Virus record (IMG/VR): IMGVR_UViG_2648501110_000007
Strand: one strand, 5' to 3'
From: a virus
Lineage: Duplodnaviria > Heunggongvirae > Uroviricota > Caudoviricetes
Length of the DNA: 8,372 nt
Shown: in pieces, positions 1 through 8,372 of the stretch
Numbering within the stretch: the stretch's first letter is position 1
How the letters are laid out: every line of letters starts with the position of its first letter
The notes under the pieces: model-generated
What the model saw: only the letters and a program-made list of their open reading frames with translations
Told to the model about the DNA's origin: nothing
Database searches by the model: none
Translations under genes and position numbers: made by a program

Positions 1-95
1 GGGGAGGAAGGAAACTACCGGATGGAAAGAGTCCCCCTAAAGCAGACTGACAGACATCACAAATCCCCGGGTGGGGATTTGTGTATAAGAGACAG
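1..95. other. Leader segment with no lambda-U-like coding frame; its last 19 nt (77-95, ATTTGTGTATAAGAGACAG) resemble a Tn5/IS50 terminal end. Possible edge of an IS4-family element or a chimeric junction.
   Basis: The U frame has an in-frame TGA at 48-50 and no recognisable U similarity upstream of 96. 79-95 matches the 3' 17 nt of the Tn5 mosaic end (AGATGTGTATAAGAGACAG); 77-95 matches the ME and the IS50 outside end at 17/19 each. The reverse complement contains TTATACACA, the DnaA-box-like core of the IS50 outside end. The interior does not match IS50 as I recall it. Confidence 0.35.
58..83. repeat. Perfect 11-bp inverted repeat CACAAATCCCC / GGGGATTTGTG separated by a 4-nt spacer (GGGT)
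   Basis: Direct reading: 58-68 is the exact reverse complement of 73-83. It overlaps the Tn5-like terminal sequence and is not followed by a T-tract on either strand. Confidence 0.8.
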
Positions 96-212
96 GCACT
101 GGCAGGGATGATTACCACGATGGTTCAGCAGGGCTATGACTATCGTCGTGATGACGATATGGCGTTATGGAGCTCTGCAGATTTGACTTATTCCATTACA
201 TACGAGATGTGA
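96..212 (+). pseudogene. U: Tail terminator protein U, C-terminal fragment only (5'-truncated)
   Basis: Translation [38 protein letters not shown] closely matches the C-terminus of lambda gpU (131 aa, from memory). Stop TGA at 210-212, 7 nt before the V start. Upstream the frame hits TGA at 48-50; the only in-frame ATG before the conserved GYDYRR block is at 108. Confidence 0.6.
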
Positions 213-219
213 GGACGAT

Positions 220-972
220 ATGCCAACACCAAATCCCCTGGCGCCGGTAAAAGGTGCCGGTACCACTCTGTGGGTTTACACCGGCAAGGGTGATGCTTAT
301 GCAAACCCGTTGTCAGATGATGACTGGCAGCGACTGGCTAAGGTGAAGGATCTGACGCCGGGCGAGATGACGGCAGAATCCTACGATGATAACTACCTGG
401 ATGATGAAGACGCGGACTGGAGCGCGACCGGGCAGGGGCAGAAGTCTGCAGGAGATACCAGTTTTACGCTGGCCTGGAAACCGGGAGAAGAAGGTCAGAA
501 AGGGCTTATAGGCTGGTTTGAAAGCGGGGATGTGCGGGCCTATAAAATCCGTTTCCCGAACGGCACGGTGGATGTGTTCCGTGGCTGGGTCAGCAGTATC
601 GGTAAGGCCGTAACGGCGAAGGAAGTGATCACCCGTACGGTGAAAGTGACCAACGTGGGTAAACCTTCCGTGGCGGAAGAACGCAGCGAAATTACGCCGG
701 CCACTGCAATTAAGGTGACACCGACATCCGGTACCGTGGAAAAAGGAAAAACAACCACCCTGACTGTTTCTTTTGAGCCGGAAAGTGCAACCGACAAGAC
801 GTTCAGAGCGGTTTCCGCCGATCCGTCAACGGGAACCATTGCTGTGAAAGATATGGTGATCACTGTGACGGGGGTTAAGGCTGGAAAAGTGAGTATCCCC
901 GTGATTTCCGGTAATGGTCAGTTTGCCACGGTAGCTGAAGTCACCGTTACTGAAGCAGGCGCTGCAGGGTAA
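220..972 (+). CDS. V: Major tail tube protein V, with C-terminal Ig-like (Big_2-type) domain
   Basis: 250-aa ORF that aligns along its length with lambda gpV (e.g. [61 protein letters not shown]). GAGGA lies 4 nt upstream of ATG 220. The C-terminal ~90 aa is Thr/Val-rich, like the lambda gpV Ig-like domain. Confidence 0.95.
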
Positions 973-985
973 ACGGAGGTCATAC

Positions 986-1417
986 ATGTTTCTGAAAACA
1001 GAACAATTTGAATATAACGGTGTGTCTGTCACGCTTTCCGAATTGTCTGCGCTGCAGCGTATTGAGCATCTTGCCCTCCTGAAACGGCGTGCAGAACAGG
1101 CAGAATCCAGCGGCAACCTGCAGGTAAGCGTGGAAGATCTCGTCAGAACCGGCGCGTTTCTGGTGGCGATGTCCCTGTGGCATAACCATCCGCAGAAAAC
1201 GGGGTCACCGTCAATGAATGAGGCTGTGATGCAGATTGAGCAGGAAGTCCTGACCACCTGGCCTGCTGATGCCATTGCCCGGGCGGAAGATGTGGTGTTG
1301 CGTCTGTCCGGGATGAGCGGGCCTGTTCATGTGGATACGGATATTACCGAAGTGGCGAAAAATAACGCGCTGACTGATGATGATTTTTCTGCGGGAAAGT
1401 CTTCGACGGCGAGCTGA
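986..1417 (+). CDS. G: Tail assembly chaperone G
   Basis: 143-aa ORF similar to lambda gpG (MFLKTE..., TLSELSALQRIEHLAL, RTGAFLVAMSLWHNHPQKT, SMNEAVMQIEQEVLTTWP). GGAGG at 975-979, 6 nt before ATG 986. Frame ends ...FSAGKSSTAS*. Confidence 0.92.
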   Translation: MFLKTEQFEYNGVSVTLSELSALQRIEHLALLKRRAEQAESSGNLQVSVEDLVRTGAFLVAMSLWHNHPQKTGSPSMNEAVMQIEQEVLTTWPADAIARAEDVVLRLSGMSGPVHVDTDITEVAKNNALTDDDFSAGKSSTAS

Positions 1418-1857
1418 ATTTTGCCCTCAGACTGGCGCGTGAGATGGGGAGGCCTGACTGGCGCGCCATGCTTGCCGGGATGACATCCACCGAATATGCC
1501 GACTGGCGACATTTTTACCGCATGCATTATTTTCACGATACCCAGCTGGATATGCATTTTTCCGGGCTGACGTACGCTGTACTCAGCCTGTTTTTTTGCG
1601 ATCCGGATATGCATCCCTCTGATTTCAGTCTGCTTGTCCCCCGGCATGAGGAAGAGCAGGTGGAGAGGCCGGATGAGGACAAAATGCTGATGCAGAAAGC
1701 GGCAGGACTTGCCGGAGGCGTCCGGTTCGGTGGGGACGGAGGGCGCGATATTTTATCGTCTGCGGATGTGGCGGATGTCATGGTGGATGATGCCGCATTA
1801 ATGATGGCTTCAGCGGGGATTTCCGGAGGTGTGAGATATGTCCCAGCCGGTTGGTGA
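986..1857 (+). CDS. T: Tail assembly chaperone G-T fusion, made by programmed -1 ribosomal frameshift at the slippery heptamer GGGAAAG (1393-1399); the T-frame portion runs 1399-1857
   Basis: G_GGA_AAG sits in the G zero frame 6 codons before the G stop. The -1 frame is open from 1399 (VFDGELNFALRLAREMGRPDWRAMLAGM...) to TGA 1855-1857 and matches lambda gpT. The ORF-track entry 1444..1857 is the 3' part of this frame. This mirrors the established lambda G/GT frameshift. Confidence 0.85.
1393..1399 (+). other. -1 programmed frameshift slippery site (GGGAAAG)
   Basis: Heptamer in the correct register (codons GGA AAG in the G frame), with the T frame open downstream. Confidence 0.8.
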
Positions 1858-4417
1858 TCTTGTTATTGACCTTAGTCTGGATGCGGTCCGTTTCGATGAG
1901 CAGATGAGCCGGGTAAGGCGTCATTTTTCAGGTCTGGATACCGACGCCAGAAAAACCGCCAGTGCTGTTGAACAGGGCCTGAGCCGCCAGGCGCTGGCTG
2001 CACAAAAAGCCGGGATTTCCGTCGGGCAGTATAAAGCGGCCATGCGAACCCTGCCCGCACAGTTTACGGATATCGCCACGCAGCTTGCCGGTGGTCAGAA
2101 TCCCTGGCTGATCCTGCTGCAACAGGGCGGTCAGGTGAAGGACTCCTTCGGCGGGATGATCCCCATGTTCAGGGGGCTTGCCGGTGCGATCACCCTGCCG
2201 ATGGTCGGGGTCACCTCGCTGGCGGTGGCGACAGGTGCGCTGGCGTACGCCTGGTACCAGGGGGATTCCACGCTTTCAGCGTTTAATAAAACCCTGGTTC
2301 TTTCCGGTAATCAGTCCGGACTGACTGCCGATCGCATGCTGACGCTCTCCAGAGCCGGACAGGCCGCAGGGCTGACGTTTAACCAGGCGAGTGAGTCACT
2401 GGCAGCCCTGGTGAATGCCGGTGTGCGTGGTGGTGAACAGTTTGATGCCATCAACCAGAGTGTCGCGCGTTTTGCTTCTGCATCCGGTGTGGAGGTGGAC
2501 AAGGTTGCAGAGGCTTTCGGAAAACTGACCACCGACCCGACGTCGGGGCTGATGGCGATGGCGCGCCAGTTCCGTAACGTGACGGCAGAGCAGATTGCGT
2601 ATGTTGCGCAGCTGCAGCGTTCCGGTGATGAGGCCGGGGCCTTACAGGCGGCGAACGATATCGCCACGAAAGGCTTTGATGAGCAGACCCGTCGCCTGAA
2701 AGAAAACATGGGGACACTGGAGACCTGGGCGGATAAAACCGGGAAGGCATTCAAATCGATGTGGGATGCCATTCTGGATATCGGTCGTCCTGAGTCCTCA
2801 GCGGATATGCTCGCCAGTGCGCAGAAGGCATTTGATGAGGCGGATAAAAAATGGCAGTGGTACCAGAGCCGGAGCCAGCGCCGCGGTAAAACCTCTTCTT
2901 TCCGGGCCAACCTTCAGGGCGCATGGAATGACCGGGAAAATGCCCGGCTGGGGCTGGCAGCGGCCACGCTGCAGTCGGATATGGAAAAAGCCGGTGAACT
3001 GGCCGCCAGGGACCGGGCCGAACGGGACGCATCACAGCTGAAGTATACCGGAGAGGCGCAGAAGGGGTATGAGCGTCTGCTGACGTCGCTGGAGAAATAT
3101 ACCGCCCGTCAGGAAGAACTGAATAAGGCCCTGAAAGACGGGAAAATCCTGCAGGCGGATTACAACACGCTGATGGCGGCGGCGAAAAAGGATTATGAAT
3201 CGACGCTGAAAAAGCCGAAGTCGTCAGGAGTCAAAGTGTCAGCCGGTGAGCGTCAGGAAGACCAGGCGCATGCTGCCCTGCTGGCGCTTGAAACCGAGCT
3301 CCGGACGCTGGAAAAACACAGCGGTGCGAATGAGAAAATCAGCCAGCAGCGTCGCGATTTATGGAAAGCGGAAAATCAGTATGCGGTCCTGAAAGAGGCA
3401 GCCACGAAACGGCAGTTATCTGAGCAGGAAAAATCCCTGCTGACCCATGAGAAAGAGACGCTGGAGTACAAACGCCAGCTGGCTGAGCTGGGAGACAAAG
3501 TTGAACACCAGAAACGGCTGAATGAGCTGGCACAGCAGGCTGCGCGGTTTGAGCAGCAGCAGGGCGCGAAGCAGGCGGCAATCAGTGCCCAGGCGCGGGG
3601 CCTCACCGACCGTCAGGCGCAGTGGGAGTCGGAAGAGCAGCACCTTCGTGACGTGTACGGTGATAATCCGGATGCGCTGGCGAAGGCCACATCTGCACTG
3701 AAGAACACCTGGTCTGCGGAGGAGCAGCTTCGTGGAAGCTGGATGGCCGGTCTGAAGTCCGGCTGGGGCGAGTGGGCAGAAAGTGCGACGGACAGTTTTT
3801 CGCAGGTTAAAAGCGTGGCCACGCAGACCTTTGACGGTATTGCACAGAATATGGCAGCGATGCTGACCGGCAGTGAGCAGAACTGGCGCAGCTTCACCCG
3901 TTCCGTGCTGTCCATGATGACAGAAATTCTGCTTAAGCAGGCAATGGTGGGGATTGTCGGGAGTATCGGTAGCGCCATTGGCGGGGCTGTTGGTGGCGGC
4001 GCATCCGCATCAGGCGGTACAGCCATTCAGGCAGCTGCGGCGAAATTCCATTTTGCGACCGGAGGATTTACGGGAACCGGCGGCAAATATGAGCCAGCGG
4101 GGATTGTTCACCGTGGTGAGTTTGTCTTCACGAAGGAGGCAACCAGCCGGATTGGCGTGGGGAATCTTTACCGGCTTATGCGCGGCTATGCCACCGGCGG
4201 TTATGTCGGTACACCGGGCAGTCTGGCGGACAGCCGGTCGCAGGCGTCCGGGAAGTTTGAGCAGAATAACCATGTGGTGATTAACAACGACGGCACGAAC
4301 GGGCAGATAGGACCACAGGCGCTGAAGGCGGTGTATGACATGGCCCGCAAGGGTGCCCGTGATGAAATTCAGACACAGATGCGTGATGGTGGCCTGTTCT
4401 CCGGAGGTGGACGATGA
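1838..4417 (+). CDS. H: Tail tape measure protein H
   Basis: 859-aa ORF. N-terminal ~300 aa and C-terminal ~350 aa are very similar to lambda gpH (e.g. PVGDLV.DLSLDA.RFDEQM.RVRRHFSG, FTRSVLSMMTEILLKQAMVGIVGSIGSAIGGAVGGGASASGG, GQIGP.ALKAVYDMARKGARDEIQTQMRDGGLFSGGGR). Central region is long, charged and helical. GGAGG lies 8 nt before ATG 1838. Start overlaps the T-frame end. Confidence 0.96.
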   Translation: MSQPVGDLVIDLSLDAVRFDEQMSRVRRHFSGLDTDARKTASAVEQGLSRQALAAQKAGISVGQYKAAMRTLPAQFTDIATQLAGGQNPWLILLQQGGQVKDSFGGMIPMFRGLAGAITLPMVGVTSLAVATGALAYAWYQGDSTLSAFNKTLVLSGNQSGLTADRMLTLSRAGQAAGLTFNQASESLAALVNAGVRGGEQFDAINQSVARFASASGVEVDKVAEAFGKLTTDPTSGLMAMARQFRNVTAEQIAYVAQLQRSGDEAGALQAANDIATKGFDEQTRRLKENMGTLETWADKTGKAFKSMWDAILDIGRPESSADMLASAQKAFDEADKKWQWYQSRSQRRGKTSSFRANLQGAWNDRENARLGLAAATLQSDMEKAGELAARDRAERDASQLKYTGEAQKGYERLLTSLEKYTARQEELNKALKDGKILQADYNTLMAAAKKDYESTLKKPKSSGVKVSAGERQEDQAHAALLALETELRTLEKHSGANEKISQQRRDLWKAENQYAVLKEAATKRQLSEQEKSLLTHEKETLEYKRQLAELGDKVEHQKRLNELAQQAARFEQQQGAKQAAISAQARGLTDRQAQWESEEQHLRDVYGDNPDALAKATSALKNTWSAEEQLRGSWMAGLKSGWGEWAESATDSFSQVKSVATQTFDGIAQNMAAMLTGSEQNWRSFTRSVLSMMTEILLKQAMVGIVGSIGSAIGGAVGGGASASGGTAIQAAAAKFHFATGGFTGTGGKYEPAGIVHRGEFVFTKEATSRIGVGNLYRLMRGYATGGYVGTPGSLADSRSQASGKFEQNNHVVINNDGTNGQIGPQALKAVYDMARKGARDEIQTQMRDGGLFSGGGR

Positions 4418-4743
4418 AAACCTTCCGCTGGAAAGTGAAACCCGGGATGGATGTGACATCGGCCCCTTCCGTAAGAAAGGTGCGCTTTGGTGATGGCTAT
4501 TCCCAGCGAGCGCCTGCCGGGCTGAATGCCAACCTGAAAACGTACAGCGTGACGCTTTCTGTCCCCCGCGAGGAGGCCACGGCACTGGAGTCGTTTCTGG
4601 AAGAGCACGGGGGCTGGAAAGCCTTTCTGTGGACGCCGCCTTATGACTGGCGGCAGATAAAGGTGACCTGCGCAAAATGGACATCGCGGGTCAGTATGCT
4701 ACGTGTTGAGTTCAGCGCAGAGTTTGAACAGGTGGTGAACTGA
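4414..4743 (+). CDS. M: Tail tip assembly protein M
   Basis: 109-aa ORF nearly identical to lambda gpM (MKTFRWKVKPGMDV...RVEFSAEFEQVVN). ATGA overlap with the H stop. Confidence 0.95.
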   Translation: MKTFRWKVKPGMDVTSAPSVRKVRFGDGYSQRAPAGLNANLKTYSVTLSVPREEATALESFLEEHGGWKAFLWTPPYDWRQIKVTCAKWTSRVSMLRVEFSAEFEQVVN

Positions 4744-5441
4744 TGCAGGATATCCGGCAGGAAACACTGAATGAATGCACCCGTGCGGAGCAGTCGGCCA
4801 GCGTGGTGCTCTGGGAAATCGACCTGACAGAGGTCGGTGGAGAACGTTATTTTTTCTGTAATGAGCAGAACGAAAAAGGTGAGCCGGTCACCTGGCAGGG
4901 GCGACAGTATCAGCCGTATCCCATTCAGGGGAGCGGTTTTGAACTGAATGGCAAAGGCACCAGTACGCGCCCCACGCTGACGGTTTCTAACCTGTACGGT
5001 ATGGTCACCGGGATGGCGGAAGATATGCAGAGTCTGGTCGGCGGAACGGTGGTCCGGCGTAAGGTTTACGCCCGTTTTCTGGATGCGGTGAACTTCGTCA
5101 ACGGAAACAGTTACGCCGATCCGGAGCAGGAGGTGATCAGCCGCTGGCGCATCGAGCAGTGCAGCGAACTGAGCGCGGTGAGTGCCTCTTTTGTACTGTC
5201 CACGCCGACGGAAACGGACGGTGCCGTTTTTCCGGGGCGCATCATGCTGGCCAACACCTGCACCTGGACCTATCGCGGTGACGAGTGCGGTTATCACGGT
5301 CCGGCGGTCGCGGATGAATATGATCAGCCGACGTCCGATATCACGAAGGATAAATGCAGCAAATGCCTGAGCGGCTGTAAGTTTCGCAATAACGTCGGCA
5401 ACTTTGGCGGCTTCCTTTCCATTAACAAACTTTCGCAGTGA
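4743..5441 (+). CDS. L: Tail tip assembly protein L (C-terminal cysteine cluster, Fe-S binding)
   Basis: 232-aa ORF nearly identical to lambda gpL. TGATG overlap with the M stop. C-terminal Cys pattern C-x-W-x5-E-C ... C-x2-C-x3-C, which in lambda gpL ligates an iron-sulfur cluster. Confidence 0.95.
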   Translation: MQDIRQETLNECTRAEQSASVVLWEIDLTEVGGERYFFCNEQNEKGEPVTWQGRQYQPYPIQGSGFELNGKGTSTRPTLTVSNLYGMVTGMAEDMQSLVGGTVVRRKVYARFLDAVNFVNGNSYADPEQEVISRWRIEQCSELSAVSASFVLSTPTETDGAVFPGRIMLANTCTWTYRGDECGYHGPAVADEYDQPTSDITKDKCSKCLSGCKFRNNVGNFGGFLSINKLSQ

Positions 5442-5446
5442 ATCCC

Positions 5447-6190
5447 ATGACAGAGACAGAATCAGCGATTCTGGCGCACGCCCGGCGATGTGCGCCAGCG
5501 GAGTCGTGCGGCTTCGTGGTGAGAACACCGGAGGGGGAAAGATATTTTCCCTGCGTGAATATCTCTGGTGAGCCGGAGGCGTATTTCCGGATGTCGCCGG
5601 AGGACTGGCTGAGTGCAGAAATGCAGGGAGAGATTGTGGCGCTGGTCCACAGCCACCCCGGTGGTCTGCCCTGGCTGAGTGAGGCCGACCGGCGGCTGCA
5701 GGTGCAGAGTGATTTGCCGTGGTGGCTGGTCTGCCGGGGGGCGATTCATAAATTCCGCTGTGTGCCGCATCTCACCGGGCGGCGCTTTGAGCACGGGGTG
5801 ACGGACTGTTACACGCTGTTCCGGGACGCTTACCATCTGGCGGGAATTGAGATGCCGGATTTTCATCGCGGGGATGACTGGTGGCGTCACGGCCAGAATC
5901 TCTATCTGGATAATATGGAGGCAACGGGGTTGTATCAGGTGCCGTTGTCAGCGGCCCAGCCGGGCGATGTGCTGCTGTGCTGTTTTGGTTCATCGGTGCC
6001 GAATCATGCCGCCATTTACTGTGGCGACGGCGAGCTGCTGCACCATATTCCTGAACAACTGAGTAAACGAGAGAGGTACACCGACAAATGGCAGCGACGC
6101 ACACACTCCCTCTGGCGTCACCGGGCATGGCACGCATCTGCCTTTACGGGGATTTGCAACGATTTGGTCGCCGTATCGACCTTCGTGTGA
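5447..6190 (+). CDS. K: Tail tip assembly protein K, two-domain: N-terminal JAB/MPN (JAMM) domain plus C-terminal NlpC/P60-like domain. Start uncertain (GTG 5438, ATG 5447, or internal ATG 5591 as in the classical lambda annotation).
   Basis: ORF is open from the L stop to 6190. JAMM motif H-S-H-x7-S-x2-D at 5648-5686 with an upstream E-x-C-G (5501-5512). NlpC/P60-like Cys in GVTDCYTLF (5807-5809) and His in NHAAIYCG. Internal ATG 5591 has GGAGG 11 nt upstream and corresponds to the classical 199-aa lambda K start. Confidence 0.85.
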   Translation: MTETESAILAHARRCAPAESCGFVVRTPEGERYFPCVNISGEPEAYFRMSPEDWLSAEMQGEIVALVHSHPGGLPWLSEADRRLQVQSDLPWWLVCRGAIHKFRCVPHLTGRRFEHGVTDCYTLFRDAYHLAGIEMPDFHRGDDWWRHGQNLYLDNMEATGLYQVPLSAAQPGDVLLCCFGSSVPNHAAIYCGDGELLHHIPEQLSKRERYTDKWQRRTHSLWRHRAWHASAFTGICNDLVAVSTFV

Positions 6191-6735
6191 AAACGGGGGC
6201 TGAAGCCATCCGGGCACTGGCCACACAGCTCCCGGTGTTTCGTCAGAAACTGAATGAGGGCTGGTATCAGGTGCGCATTGCCGGGCGTGATGCAGGCGAA
6301 AACGAATTATCTGCCCGTCTTAATGAGCCGCTGGCAAATGGTGCCGTGATCCACATCGTACCGCGTCTGGCGGGAGCTAAAAGTGGCGGTGTGTTTCAGG
6401 TGGTGCTTGGGGCGGCGCTGATTGCGGTGGCATGGTGGAACCCTGTGGGCTGGCTGGGGGCCGCGGCTGTATCGGGCATGTATGCGGCAGGGGCCAGTAT
6501 GATCCTGGGCGGAGTGGCGCAGATGCTGGCACCGAAAGCCAGGACGCCCACGGCAGCCAGTACAGATAACGGCAAACAGAACACCTATTTCTCCTCACTG
6601 GATAACATGGTTGCCCAGGGCAATGTTCTGCCTGTTCTGTACGGTGAAATGCGCGTGGGGTCACGTGTGGTTTCTCAGGAGATCAGCACGGCAGACGAAG
6701 GGGATGGTGGTCAGGTTGTGGTGATTGGTCGCTGA
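6088..6735 (+). CDS. I: Tail tip assembly protein I (N-terminal ubiquitin-like/beta-grasp domain)
   Basis: 215-aa ORF similar to lambda gpI at both ends (MAATHTLPLASPGMARICLYGDLQRFGRRIDLRV... and ...NGKQNTYFSSLDNMVAQGNVLPVLYGEMRVGSRVVSQEISTADEGDGGQVVVIGR). Starts 103 nt inside the 3' end of K in another frame, as in lambda. GAGAGG upstream. Confidence 0.92.
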   Translation: MAATHTLPLASPGMARICLYGDLQRFGRRIDLRVKTGAEAIRALATQLPVFRQKLNEGWYQVRIAGRDAGENELSARLNEPLANGAVIHIVPRLAGAKSGGVFQVVLGAALIAVAWWNPVGWLGAAAVSGMYAAGASMILGGVAQMLAPKARTPTAASTDNGKQNTYFSSLDNMVAQGNVLPVLYGEMRVGSRVVSQEISTADEGDGGQVVVIGR

Positions 6736-6753
6736 TGCAAAATGTTTTATGTG

Positions 6754-6780
6754 AAACCGCCTCCGGGCGGTTTTATCGTT
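6754..6780 (+). terminator. Terminator-like hairpin in the I-J intergenic spacer: AAACCGCC-TCCG-GGCGGTTT followed by TTTTATCGTTT
   Basis: Direct reading: 5-bp GC stem (CCGCC/GGCGG) extended by A:T pairs, 4-nt loop, T-rich tail. It lies between the I stop (6735) and the J Shine-Dalgarno/ATG (6796). The stem is short, so as a terminator it would be weak. Confidence 0.3.
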
Positions 6781-6795
6781 TATGGAGCGTGAGGA

Positions 6796-8372
6796 ATGGG
6801 TAAAGGCAGCAGTAAGGGGCATACCCCGCGCGAAGCGAAGGACAACCTGAAGTCCACGCAGCTGCTGAGTGTGATCGATGCCATCAGCGAAGGGCCGGTT
6901 GAAGGTCCGGTGGATGGATTAAAAAGCGTGCTGCTGAACAGTACGCCGGTGCTGGACAGTGAGGGGAATACCAATATATCCGGCGTCACGGTGGTGTTCC
7001 GGGCCGGTGAGCAGGAGCAGACACCGCCGGAGGGATTTGAATCCTCCGGCTCCGAGACGGTGCTCGGTACAGAAGTGAAATATGACACGCCGATCACCCG
7101 CGCCATCACGTCGGCAAACATCGACCGACTGCGCCTGACCTTCGGTGTGCAGGCACTGGTGGAAACCACCTCAAAGGGGGACCGGAATCCGTCGGAAGTT
7201 CGCCTGCTGGTTCAGATACAGCGTAATGGTGGCTGGGTGACGGAAAAAGACATCACCATTAAGGGCAAAACCACCTCGCAGTATCTGGCCTCGGTGGTGG
7301 TGGATAACCTGCCGCCGCGCCCGTTTAATATCCGGATGCGCAGAATGACGCCGGACAGCACCACAGACCAGCTGCAGAACAAAACGCTCTGGTCGTCATA
7401 CACCGAAATCATCGATGTGAAACAGGGCTACCCGAACACGGCACTGGTCGGCGTAAAGGTGGATTCGGAGCAGTTCGGCAGCCAGCAGGTGAGCCGTAAT
7501 TATCATCTTCGCGGGCGTATTCTGCAGGTGCCGTCGAACTATAACCCGCAGACGCGGCAATACAGCGGTATCTGGGACGGAACGTTAAAACCGGCATACA
7601 GCAACAACCCGGCCTGGTGTCTGTGGGATATGCTGACCCACCCGCGCTACGGCATGGGGAAACGTCTTGGTGCGGCGGATGTGGATAAATGGGCGCTGTA
7701 TGTCATCGGCCAGTACTGCGACCAGTCGGTGCCGGACGGCTTTGGCGGCACGGAGCCGCGCATTACCTGTAATGCGTACCTGACCACACAGCGTAAGGCG
7801 TGGGATGTGCTCAGTGATTTCTGCTCGGCGATGCGCTGTATGCCGGTATGGAACGGGCAGACGCTGACGTTCGTGCAGGACCGACCATCAGATAAGGTGT
7901 GGACCTATAACCGCAGTAATGTGGTGATGCCGGATGATGGTGCGCCGTTCCGCTACAGCTTCAGCGCCCTGAAGGACCGCCATAATGCCGTTGAGGTGAA
8001 CTGGATTGACCCGAATAACGGCTGGGAGACGGCGACAGAGCTTGTTGAAGATACGCAGGCCATTGCCCGTTACGGCCGTAATGTCACGAAGATGGATGCC
8101 TTTGGTTGTACCAGTCGGGGGCAGGCACACCGAGCCGGGCTGTGGCTGATTAAAACGGAACTGCTGGAAACGCAGACCGTGGATTTCAGCGTGGGCGCAG
8201 AAGGGCTTCGCCATGTGCCGGGCGATGTTATTGAAATCTGCGATGATGACTATGCCGGTATCAGCATCGGTGGTCGCGTGCTGGCGGTGAACAGCCAGAC
8301 CCGGACGCTGACGCTCGACCGTGAAATCACGCTGCCATCCTCCGGCACCACGCTGATAAGCCTGGTTGACGG
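6796..8372 (+). CDS. J: Tail tip / central tail fibre protein J (host specificity), N-terminal 525 codons; 3'-partial, continues past window end
   Basis: Frame is open from ATG 6796 to the window end. Translation MGKGSSKGHTPREAKDNLKSTQLLSVIDAISEGP...LQVPSNYNPQTRQYSGIWDG...VDFSVGAEGLRHVPGDVIEICDDDYAGIS... is near-identical to the lambda gpJ N-terminus. GAGG lies 5 nt upstream of the ATG. Missing from the ORF track because there is no stop in the window. Confidence 0.95.
   Translation, partial: MGKGSSKGHTPREAKDNLKSTQLLSVIDAISEGPVEGPVDGLKSVLLNSTPVLDSEGNTNISGVTVVFRAGEQEQTPPEGFESSGSETVLGTEVKYDTPITRAITSANIDRLRLTFGVQALVETTSKGDRNPSEVRLLVQIQRNGGWVTEKDITIKGKTTSQYLASVVVDNLPPRPFNIRMRRMTPDSTTDQLQNKTLWSSYTEIIDVKQGYPNTALVGVKVDSEQFGSQQVSRNYHLRGRILQVPSNYNPQTRQYSGIWDGTLKPAYSNNPAWCLWDMLTHPRYGMGKRLGAADVDKWALYVIGQYCDQSVPDGFGGTEPRITCNAYLTTQRKAWDVLSDFCSAMRCMPVWNGQTLTFVQDRPSDKVWTYNRSNVVMPDDGAPFRYSFSALKDRHNAVEVNWIDPNNGWETATELVEDTQAIARYGRNVTKMDAFGCTSRGQAHRAGLWLIKTELLETQTVDFSVGAEGLRHVPGDVIEICDDDYAGISIGGRVLAVNSQTRTLTLDREITLPSSGTTLISLVD

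Follow-up and report, generated by a model that had tools for sequence, protein, structure and literature searches.

Near the left end of this lambda-like tail gene cluster, the sequence of the tail terminator gene U breaks off, and the question that the locus raises is what the 95 nucleotides in front of the remnant are and how they came to be joined to it. The window, by which we mean the whole stretch of DNA that was analyzed, is the complete draft contig JHSP01000177.1 of assembly GCA_001266025.1 and has a length of 8372 bp. Its left edge lies 95 nt inside the multicopy insertion sequence (IS) ISEc13, and its right edge lies within gene J. The features to which the text refers are the following:

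1 to 95, minus strand: last 95 nt of ISEc13 at its transposase-proximal (outside-end-like) end; identical to ISEc13 copies at 95 of 95 positions
58 to 83, no strand assigned: perfect 11-bp palindrome internal to ISEc13, CACAAATCCCC / GGGGATTTGTG, with a 4-nt loop; from fold and repeat scan
77 to 95, minus strand: 19-bp terminal inverted repeat of ISEc13, reading CTGTCTCTTATACACAAAT on the minus strand; 17/19 to the Tn5 mosaic end
81 to 212, plus strand: 43-codon open reading frame (ORF) with its GTG in the IS tip, in frame into the U remnant; from the mechanical ORF list
96 to 103, plus strand: 8-bp target GCACTGGC, expected to be duplicated at the other junction; from the direct repeats of complete copies
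96 to 212, plus strand: 3' remnant of the tail terminator gene U, codons 94 to 131 and stop; from identity and Pfam
104 to 107, plus strand: AGGG, right arm of the target motif CCCCT-N8-AGGGG; from 35 unique flanks
220 to 8372, plus strand: lambda-like tail module V, G, T, tape measure H, M, L, K, I, and 5' part of J; from ORFs and Pfam

Origin of bases 1 to 95

A BLAST search of bases 1 to 400 against 5426 complete E. coli genomes returned matches to U and V in the thousands, many of them 100% identical and all of them starting from nt 96. None of these U/V matches covered bases 1 to 95 in the same place beside U. Alignments to U from phage records began at nt 95 or 96 and never further left. 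The original prediction had placed the end of U homology at nt 96, and this was confirmed, as all E. coli and phage homologues begin there, apart from a few that begin at nt 95.

Taken by themselves, bases 1 to 95 were present in 1608 of the 5426 complete E. coli genomes, at up to 31 places per genome and on chromosomes as well as plasmids, and the best match was at least 99% identical in 558 records. They also occur on plasmids of Escherichia, Shigella, Salmonella, and Klebsiella; when species-representative genomes were scanned, none matched the IS end. Bases 1 to 95 are 100% identical to the ends of annotated ISEc13 copies, and the gene downstream of their equivalent is annotated by NCBI PGAP as "IS4-like element ISEc13 family transposase." ISEc13 ends sit beside unrelated chromosomal or plasmid genes, for example, agp and ybaY, and the element occupies about 30 places in EPEC E2348/69. 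Going by sequence identity, bases 1 to 95 are the end of the catalogued E. coli element ISEc13, and their presence next to U is an ordinary gene disruption, of a kind already known.

Complete ISEc13 is 1550 bp long and has the ends CTGTCTCTTGATCAGATCT and CTGTCTCTTATACACAAAT. Window nt 95 aligns with the last IS base in loci L001, L007, and L008, and in the alignment U resumes at nt 96 with zero gap behind this tip. Across the visible 95 nt, which are all that can be judged out of 1550, the window does not differ from the ISEc13 reference. Its site in U is new among the 5426 complete E. coli genomes, and the right-hand ISEc13-U junction was absent from all of them. The 457-amino-acid (aa) transposase gene of L001 begins 70 nt to the left of the equivalent of window nt 1, the transposase ATG lying about 166 nt from the ISEc13 tip in full copies. 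Bases 1 to 95 represent the tip and part of the untranslated leader/promoter region, with the body of the element and its transposase gene to the left, off the contig, on the minus strand. The window copy may be nonintact, its transposase gene being located beyond the contig.

A degenerate ISEc13 copy of 1445 bp was noticed beside an IS481 remnant in O157:H7, O121, and other strains (L002, positions 1651 to 3095; L006; L009). The transposase is broken up into two ORFs, but the end of the copy retains 100% identity with bases 1 to 95 of the window. The two complete copies (L002 and L006) are without matching direct repeats. At the O157:H7 locus L002, espL2 is found beyond the IS481 remnant.

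Relationship of ISEc13 to the IS50 subgroup

The terminal segment at 77 to 95, ATTTGTGTATAAGAGACAG, differs from the Tn5 mosaic end, CTGTCTCTTATACACATCT, at 2 of 19 positions. No other site in the window comes within three mismatches of the mosaic end, and no such site occurred in 200 shuffles. The agreement is one of 17/19 rather than exact, and the flanking 76 nt are ISEc13 sequence. By eye, the segment also agrees at 17 of 19 positions, again short of identity, with the IS50 outside end, CTGACTCTTATACACAAGT. The terminus is thus Tn5/IS50-end-like, as had been claimed.

Members of the IS50 subgroup share the terminal consensus CW------Y---CA-A--W- and a single unframeshifted DDE transposase with the signature Y-(2)-R-(3)-E-(6)-K; they measure 1350 to 1550 bp and generate a target site duplication of 8 to 9 bp (PMC2266710). 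The reverse complement of 76 to 95, CTGTCTCTTATACACAAATC, fits every specified position of the subgroup consensus. Reference copies of ISEc13 are 1550 bp long, the window copy being cut by the contig end. The transposase of the reference copy L001 (457 aa) can be aligned along its entire length with structures of the Tn5 transposase (E = 6e-84). It also matches the Pfam families Tnp_DNA_bind and DDE_Tnp_1, with Dimer_Tnp_Tn5 slightly under the family cutoff, and it carries D93, D193, and E323 as well as Y316-R319-E323-K330. In size, ends, signature, and duplication length, ISEc13 fits the IS50 subgroup of the IS4 family as delimited in PMC2266710. One of the explanations offered at the outset, an IS4-family, Tn5-like insertion truncating U, is therefore upheld, given that bases 1 to 95 are an ISEc13 end and that the transposase of this element matches that of Tn5.

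Target site preference of ISEc13

To describe the sites that the element occupies, 35 unique outward flanks of ISEc13-type ends were compiled from IMG/VR as well as from records of E. coli and of plasmids (L001, L007, L008, and L010 to L033), 24 of them at the window-type end and 11 at the other end. The 35 flanks yielded the target consensus CCCCT-N8-AGGGG with an 8-bp duplication. Counted outward from the tip, positions +10 to +13 were occupied by G in 27 to 29 of the 35 flanks, and position +9 was occupied by A in 18. GGG occurred within +9 to +14 in 28 of 35 flanks, compared to 4.5% at random positions of the same loci. Among eight complete ISEc13-type copies with matching flanks, seven had direct repeats of 8 bp and one had a repeat of 9 bp. 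The 9-bp target duplication that had been expected for the window must be revised to 8 bp for ISEc13 on the basis of these copies.

The intact site in U reads tCCCT GCACTGGC AGGGat and forms a perfect 8-bp stem with a 4-nt loop; the flank in the window opens exactly with GCACTGGC AGGG. Targets of ISEc13 are often terminator-like hairpin stems, for example, in L001, L007, and L008; several of them are perfect, with the loop at the center of the duplication.

One further locus, GCCCCT-GCATAAAC-AGGGGC, carries ISEc13 in opposite orientations at about position 1509 of L014 and at about positions 5087 to 6637 of L025, and it was also seen in L018 and L029. The flanks of L014 and L025 are identical at 291 of 300 positions. 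The occupation of one phage locus in opposite orientations argues that preferred sites are hit repeatedly and independently.

No account of the target consensus was found in the searchable literature, which mentions ISEc13 only in passing; ISfinder may record it. We put forward tentatively that ISEc13 could be an unusually site-selective Tn5 relative, which would recognize inverted CCCCT/AGGGG arms 8 bp apart, often in the form of hairpin stems, and could insert in both orientations. If this preference is indeed undescribed, codons 92 to 98 of U (CCCT-GCACTGGC-AGGG) would constitute a predictable hot spot for prophage inactivation, and ISEc13 would offer a natural model for the reading of target DNA by a Tn5-type transposase. 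As a by-product of the analysis, the sharp target consensus would be only mildly new.

Insertion of ISEc13 into gene U

Very probably, a copy of ISEc13 transposed into gene U of a lambda-like E. coli prophage. By homology to Tn5, a transposase dimer would synapse the two 19-bp ends, excise the element, and join its 3' ends to the staggered target. In the case of U, the target would have been cut at GCACTGGC (codons 94 to 96), with an 8-bp stagger between the CCCT and AGGG arms, and gap repair would have duplicated these 8 bp. A simple insertion would put GATCCCTGCACTGGC of U against the other IS end; the sequence would read ...TCCGCGATCCCTGCACTGGC and then CTGTCTCTTGATCAGATCT, i.e., TCCGCGATCCCTGCACTGGC joined to CTGTCTCTTGATCAGATCTCC. 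The destruction of U can be read directly from the window; that the event was a simple insertion, with the other half of U adjacent to the element, we infer.

The reciprocal junction, consisting of the U 5' part, GCACTGGC, and CTGTCTCTTGATCAG, was searched for in several collections. It was absent from IMG/VR (9-bp, gapped, and 8-bp patterns), from species-representative genomes (9-bp duplication pattern), and from JGI metagenomes (8- or 9-bp pattern). It should be noted that the 9-bp and gapped patterns assume a duplication of 9 bp, which is wrong for ISEc13. When a synthetic 240-nt junction between the U 5' part and the IS was compared with the complete E. coli genomes, no place was covered by 80% or more. 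Read-through fusions predicted from U(1-96) and the IS, one of 103 aa and eight allele variants of 119 aa, were not on record in an exact look-up. Used as the query of a homology search, the 119-aa fusion retrieved U proteins and U fused to other sequences but no fusion to ISEc13.

This failure to find the reciprocal junction in any collection, or as a fusion protein, is also what would be expected if the IS-U junction were the scar of an ISEc13-mediated rearrangement, whether by adjacent deletion, inversion, or recombination between IS copies. The U 5' part, perhaps together with head genes, would then be deleted or located elsewhere. That rearranged copies exist is indicated by the complete copies L017 and L024 and by the degenerate copy of L002 and L006, all without matching direct repeats. 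However, the right flank in the window begins exactly with the consensus target, as it should after a primary insertion, and a later change at the far end would leave this flank unaltered. Moreover, the missing junction is weak evidence because the searched collections exclude the other contigs of the source assembly. We consider a rearrangement unlikely and favor transposition of ISEc13 into U.

Authenticity of the junction

A second contig, IMGVR_UViG_2711768074_000009 (L005), contains the identical junction with 119 nt of the IS and has a different far end. Over the first 3750 nt, a single position distinguishes it from the window, and the remaining 85 of the 86 differences are clustered between 3751 and 5527, a segment that takes in the 3' part of the tape-measure gene along with M and L. 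L005 therefore derives from another strain, which inherited the insertion and in which a segment of the tail genes was later exchanged; the segment from 3751 to 5527 is a recombination patch in otherwise near-identical prophages. Another contig from the same IMG genome as L005, L027, shows an ISEc13 end at a different insertion, without the U 5' part.

Alignment of the IS tip with U revealed no shared sequence that would be able to mislead an assembler. Together with the independent assembly and with a target that fits the preference of the element, this indicates that the IS-U junction is real.

This IS end was present on 21 IMG/VR contigs, and 14 of these have one of their own ends 77 to 119 nt inside it, as is typical of short-read assemblies that break at a repeat. 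The window begins 95 nt inside the IS because ISEc13 is multicopy and a short-read assembly could not extend through it. Since contigs break at the repeat, the missing U 5' part and the missing transposase gene reflect limits of the assembly and are not evidence of absence; the U 5' part may well be on another contig. The observation that only about 39 codons of U are visible was correct insofar as U is disrupted, but the shortness of the stub is partly due to the contig ending inside a multicopy IS.

The resemblance of 77 to 95 to the mosaic end (17/19) and its position near a contig end would also suit an assembly chimera or a library artifact, in which a Nextera/Tn5 mosaic-end adapter or a mini-Tn5 had been joined to phage DNA. 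Against this, both mismatches fall at adapter-proximal positions, the 76 nt upstream match a natural chromosomal IS at 100% rather than an adapter or vector, a different assembly of a different strain shares the junction, and the target obeys the insertion preference of ISEc13 itself. A Nextera or EZ-Tn5 adapter was rejected, as the exact 19-nt mosaic end is absent (two mismatches) and the upstream IS is present in about 1600 genomes. The library or adapter origin considered in the original prediction is very improbable, with 76 nt of IS upstream and the junction reproduced by an independent assembly.

A mosaic breakpoint between two phage modules, with bases 1 to 95 as ordinary phage DNA, would accord with the mosaic nature of lambdoid prophages and with the mosaic patch downstream at 3751 to 5527, but it is next to inconceivable and was rejected, because bases 1 to 95 match no phage record adjacent to U and are identical to the IS end beside agp, ybaY, and plasmid loci.

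Gene U remnant and tail module

Aligned with the intact prophage L003, bases 96 to 212 comprise codons 94 to 131 and the stop codon of a 131-aa U, with 100% identity to the corresponding part of U in many E. coli prophages. The remnant matches the Pfam family Phage_tail_U (PF06141) at profile positions 96 to 130 of 130 only (E = 1e-13), not over its full length. An intact U homologue (P0001) covers positions 1 to 130 of PF06141 (E = 2.8e-61) and matches lambda gpU (PDB 1Z1Z) with an E value of 3e-69. In lambda-type tails, U is the terminator and provides the surface to which the head is joined. With U split after about residue 96 of 131, we predict that the prophage cannot make a functional tail terminator alone.

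A stop codon in the U frame had been reported at 48 to 50, and a TGA is indeed present there. The accompanying statement that no ORF reads into U has to be withdrawn, as the 43-codon ORF from the GTG at position 81 does so in frame. It encodes VYKRQ followed by U residues 94 to 131, the GTG being supplied by the IS tip. This ORF is uncalled in the source assembly, its product is not on record as a protein, and it is without convincing ribosome-binding spacing. It is probably not expressed.

Downstream, V, G, T, H, M, L, K, and I are apparently intact and collinear with those of an intact prophage, at 97% identity. The intactness of these tail genes suggests that the insertion is recent compared to gene decay or that the module has been kept by exchange. 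A slippery heptamer, GGGAAAG, was found at 1393 to 1399, near the end of the G homologue (986 to 1417) and ahead of the T homologue (1444 to 1857); its sequence and position agree with the -1 frameshift between G and T that is conserved in tail assembly chaperones. Gene J (tail tip), at 6796 to 8372, is cut by the contig end. Most E. coli genomes contain J more than once (median, 3 places per genome), so that the contig probably stops at a repeat on either side.

A number of U proteins in the databases (P0043, P0067, P0077, P0106, and P0122) turn to unrelated sequence after residues about 70 to 95, and P0122, in which U is fused to foreign sequence, is encoded in 58 contigs. From these foreign continuations it appears that U genes of E. 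coli prophages have been disrupted repeatedly at other sites.

Palindromes at the ends of ISEc13

The inverted repeat at 58 to 68 and 73 to 83 is perfect over 11 nt, with a predicted folding energy of about -18 kcal/mol (z = -3.6). It lies 13 to 38 nt from the ISEc13 tip, between the terminal repeat, whose inner 7 nt it shares, and the transposase leader. All of the ISEc13 copies that were inspected have it, and it bears no relation to U. The original prediction was accurate in describing it as perfect; as a feature linked to the junction it does not stand, since it is internal to ISEc13.

Variants of 94 to 96% identity retain the stem except for one or two substitutions, as does a relative of 72% identity that resides on a Salmonella IncX1 plasmid (L030). 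Three types of substitution were seen. Two of them would permit a G.U pair on the minus (transposase-sense) strand and give a mismatch on the plus strand; with the third, pairing is lost on either strand. A consensus scan did not call an intrinsic terminator at the palindrome, and no sigma-70-like promoter was called anywhere in ISEc13. In transcripts that enter ISEc13 from outside, the palindrome would form an RNA hairpin on the transposase-sense strand. Its position and the two G.U-compatible substitutions give a weak hint of such a role.

The far end of the element, CTGTCTCTTGATCAGATCT (L001, positions 1546 to 1580), lies within a perfect 13-bp palindrome, GTCTCTTGATCAG/CTGATCAAGAGAC, which holds most of the terminal repeat. 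This far end is identical to the IS50 inside end. Any function of the palindromes at the two ISEc13 ends would be putative.

Implications for annotation and comparison with known systems

For annotation, the prophage should be marked as having a disrupted U and as defective for tail completion unless a coresident lambdoid prophage supplies U. The start of the contig should be taken for the boundary of an IS repeat rather than for a prophage end. In addition, sequences that nearly match the Tn5 mosaic end in enterobacterial assemblies are not necessarily adapter contamination, given that natural ISEc13 ends agree with it at 17 of 19 positions.

IS insertions are common in the late genes of E. 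coli prophages. The window resembles those cryptic lambdoid prophages of E. coli that are disrupted by an IS in that one late structural gene is broken up and the adjoining tail genes are intact; only the element and the site differ.

Another IS4-family element, IS231A, reportedly prefers GGG(N)5CCC targets. Like ISEc13, it selects short G/C-rich inverted arms that flank the staggered cut. Insertion specificity of IS231A and a duplication of 10 to 12 bp are on record (PMC2266710). The two elements differ in subgroup, in the sequence and spacing of the arms, and in the duplication, which is longer in IS231A.

In comparison with IS50/Tn5, ISEc13 has a transposase of the same fold family and a different body sequence. 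In both elements, the stop codon of the transposase gene lies inside the far terminal repeat. We know of no IS50 equivalent of the 11-bp palindrome just inside the ISEc13 end. The duplication made by ISEc13 is mostly 8 bp, in contrast to 9 bp in IS50/Tn5, and its preference for CCCCT-N8-AGGGG is much stronger than the weak target consensus of Tn5.
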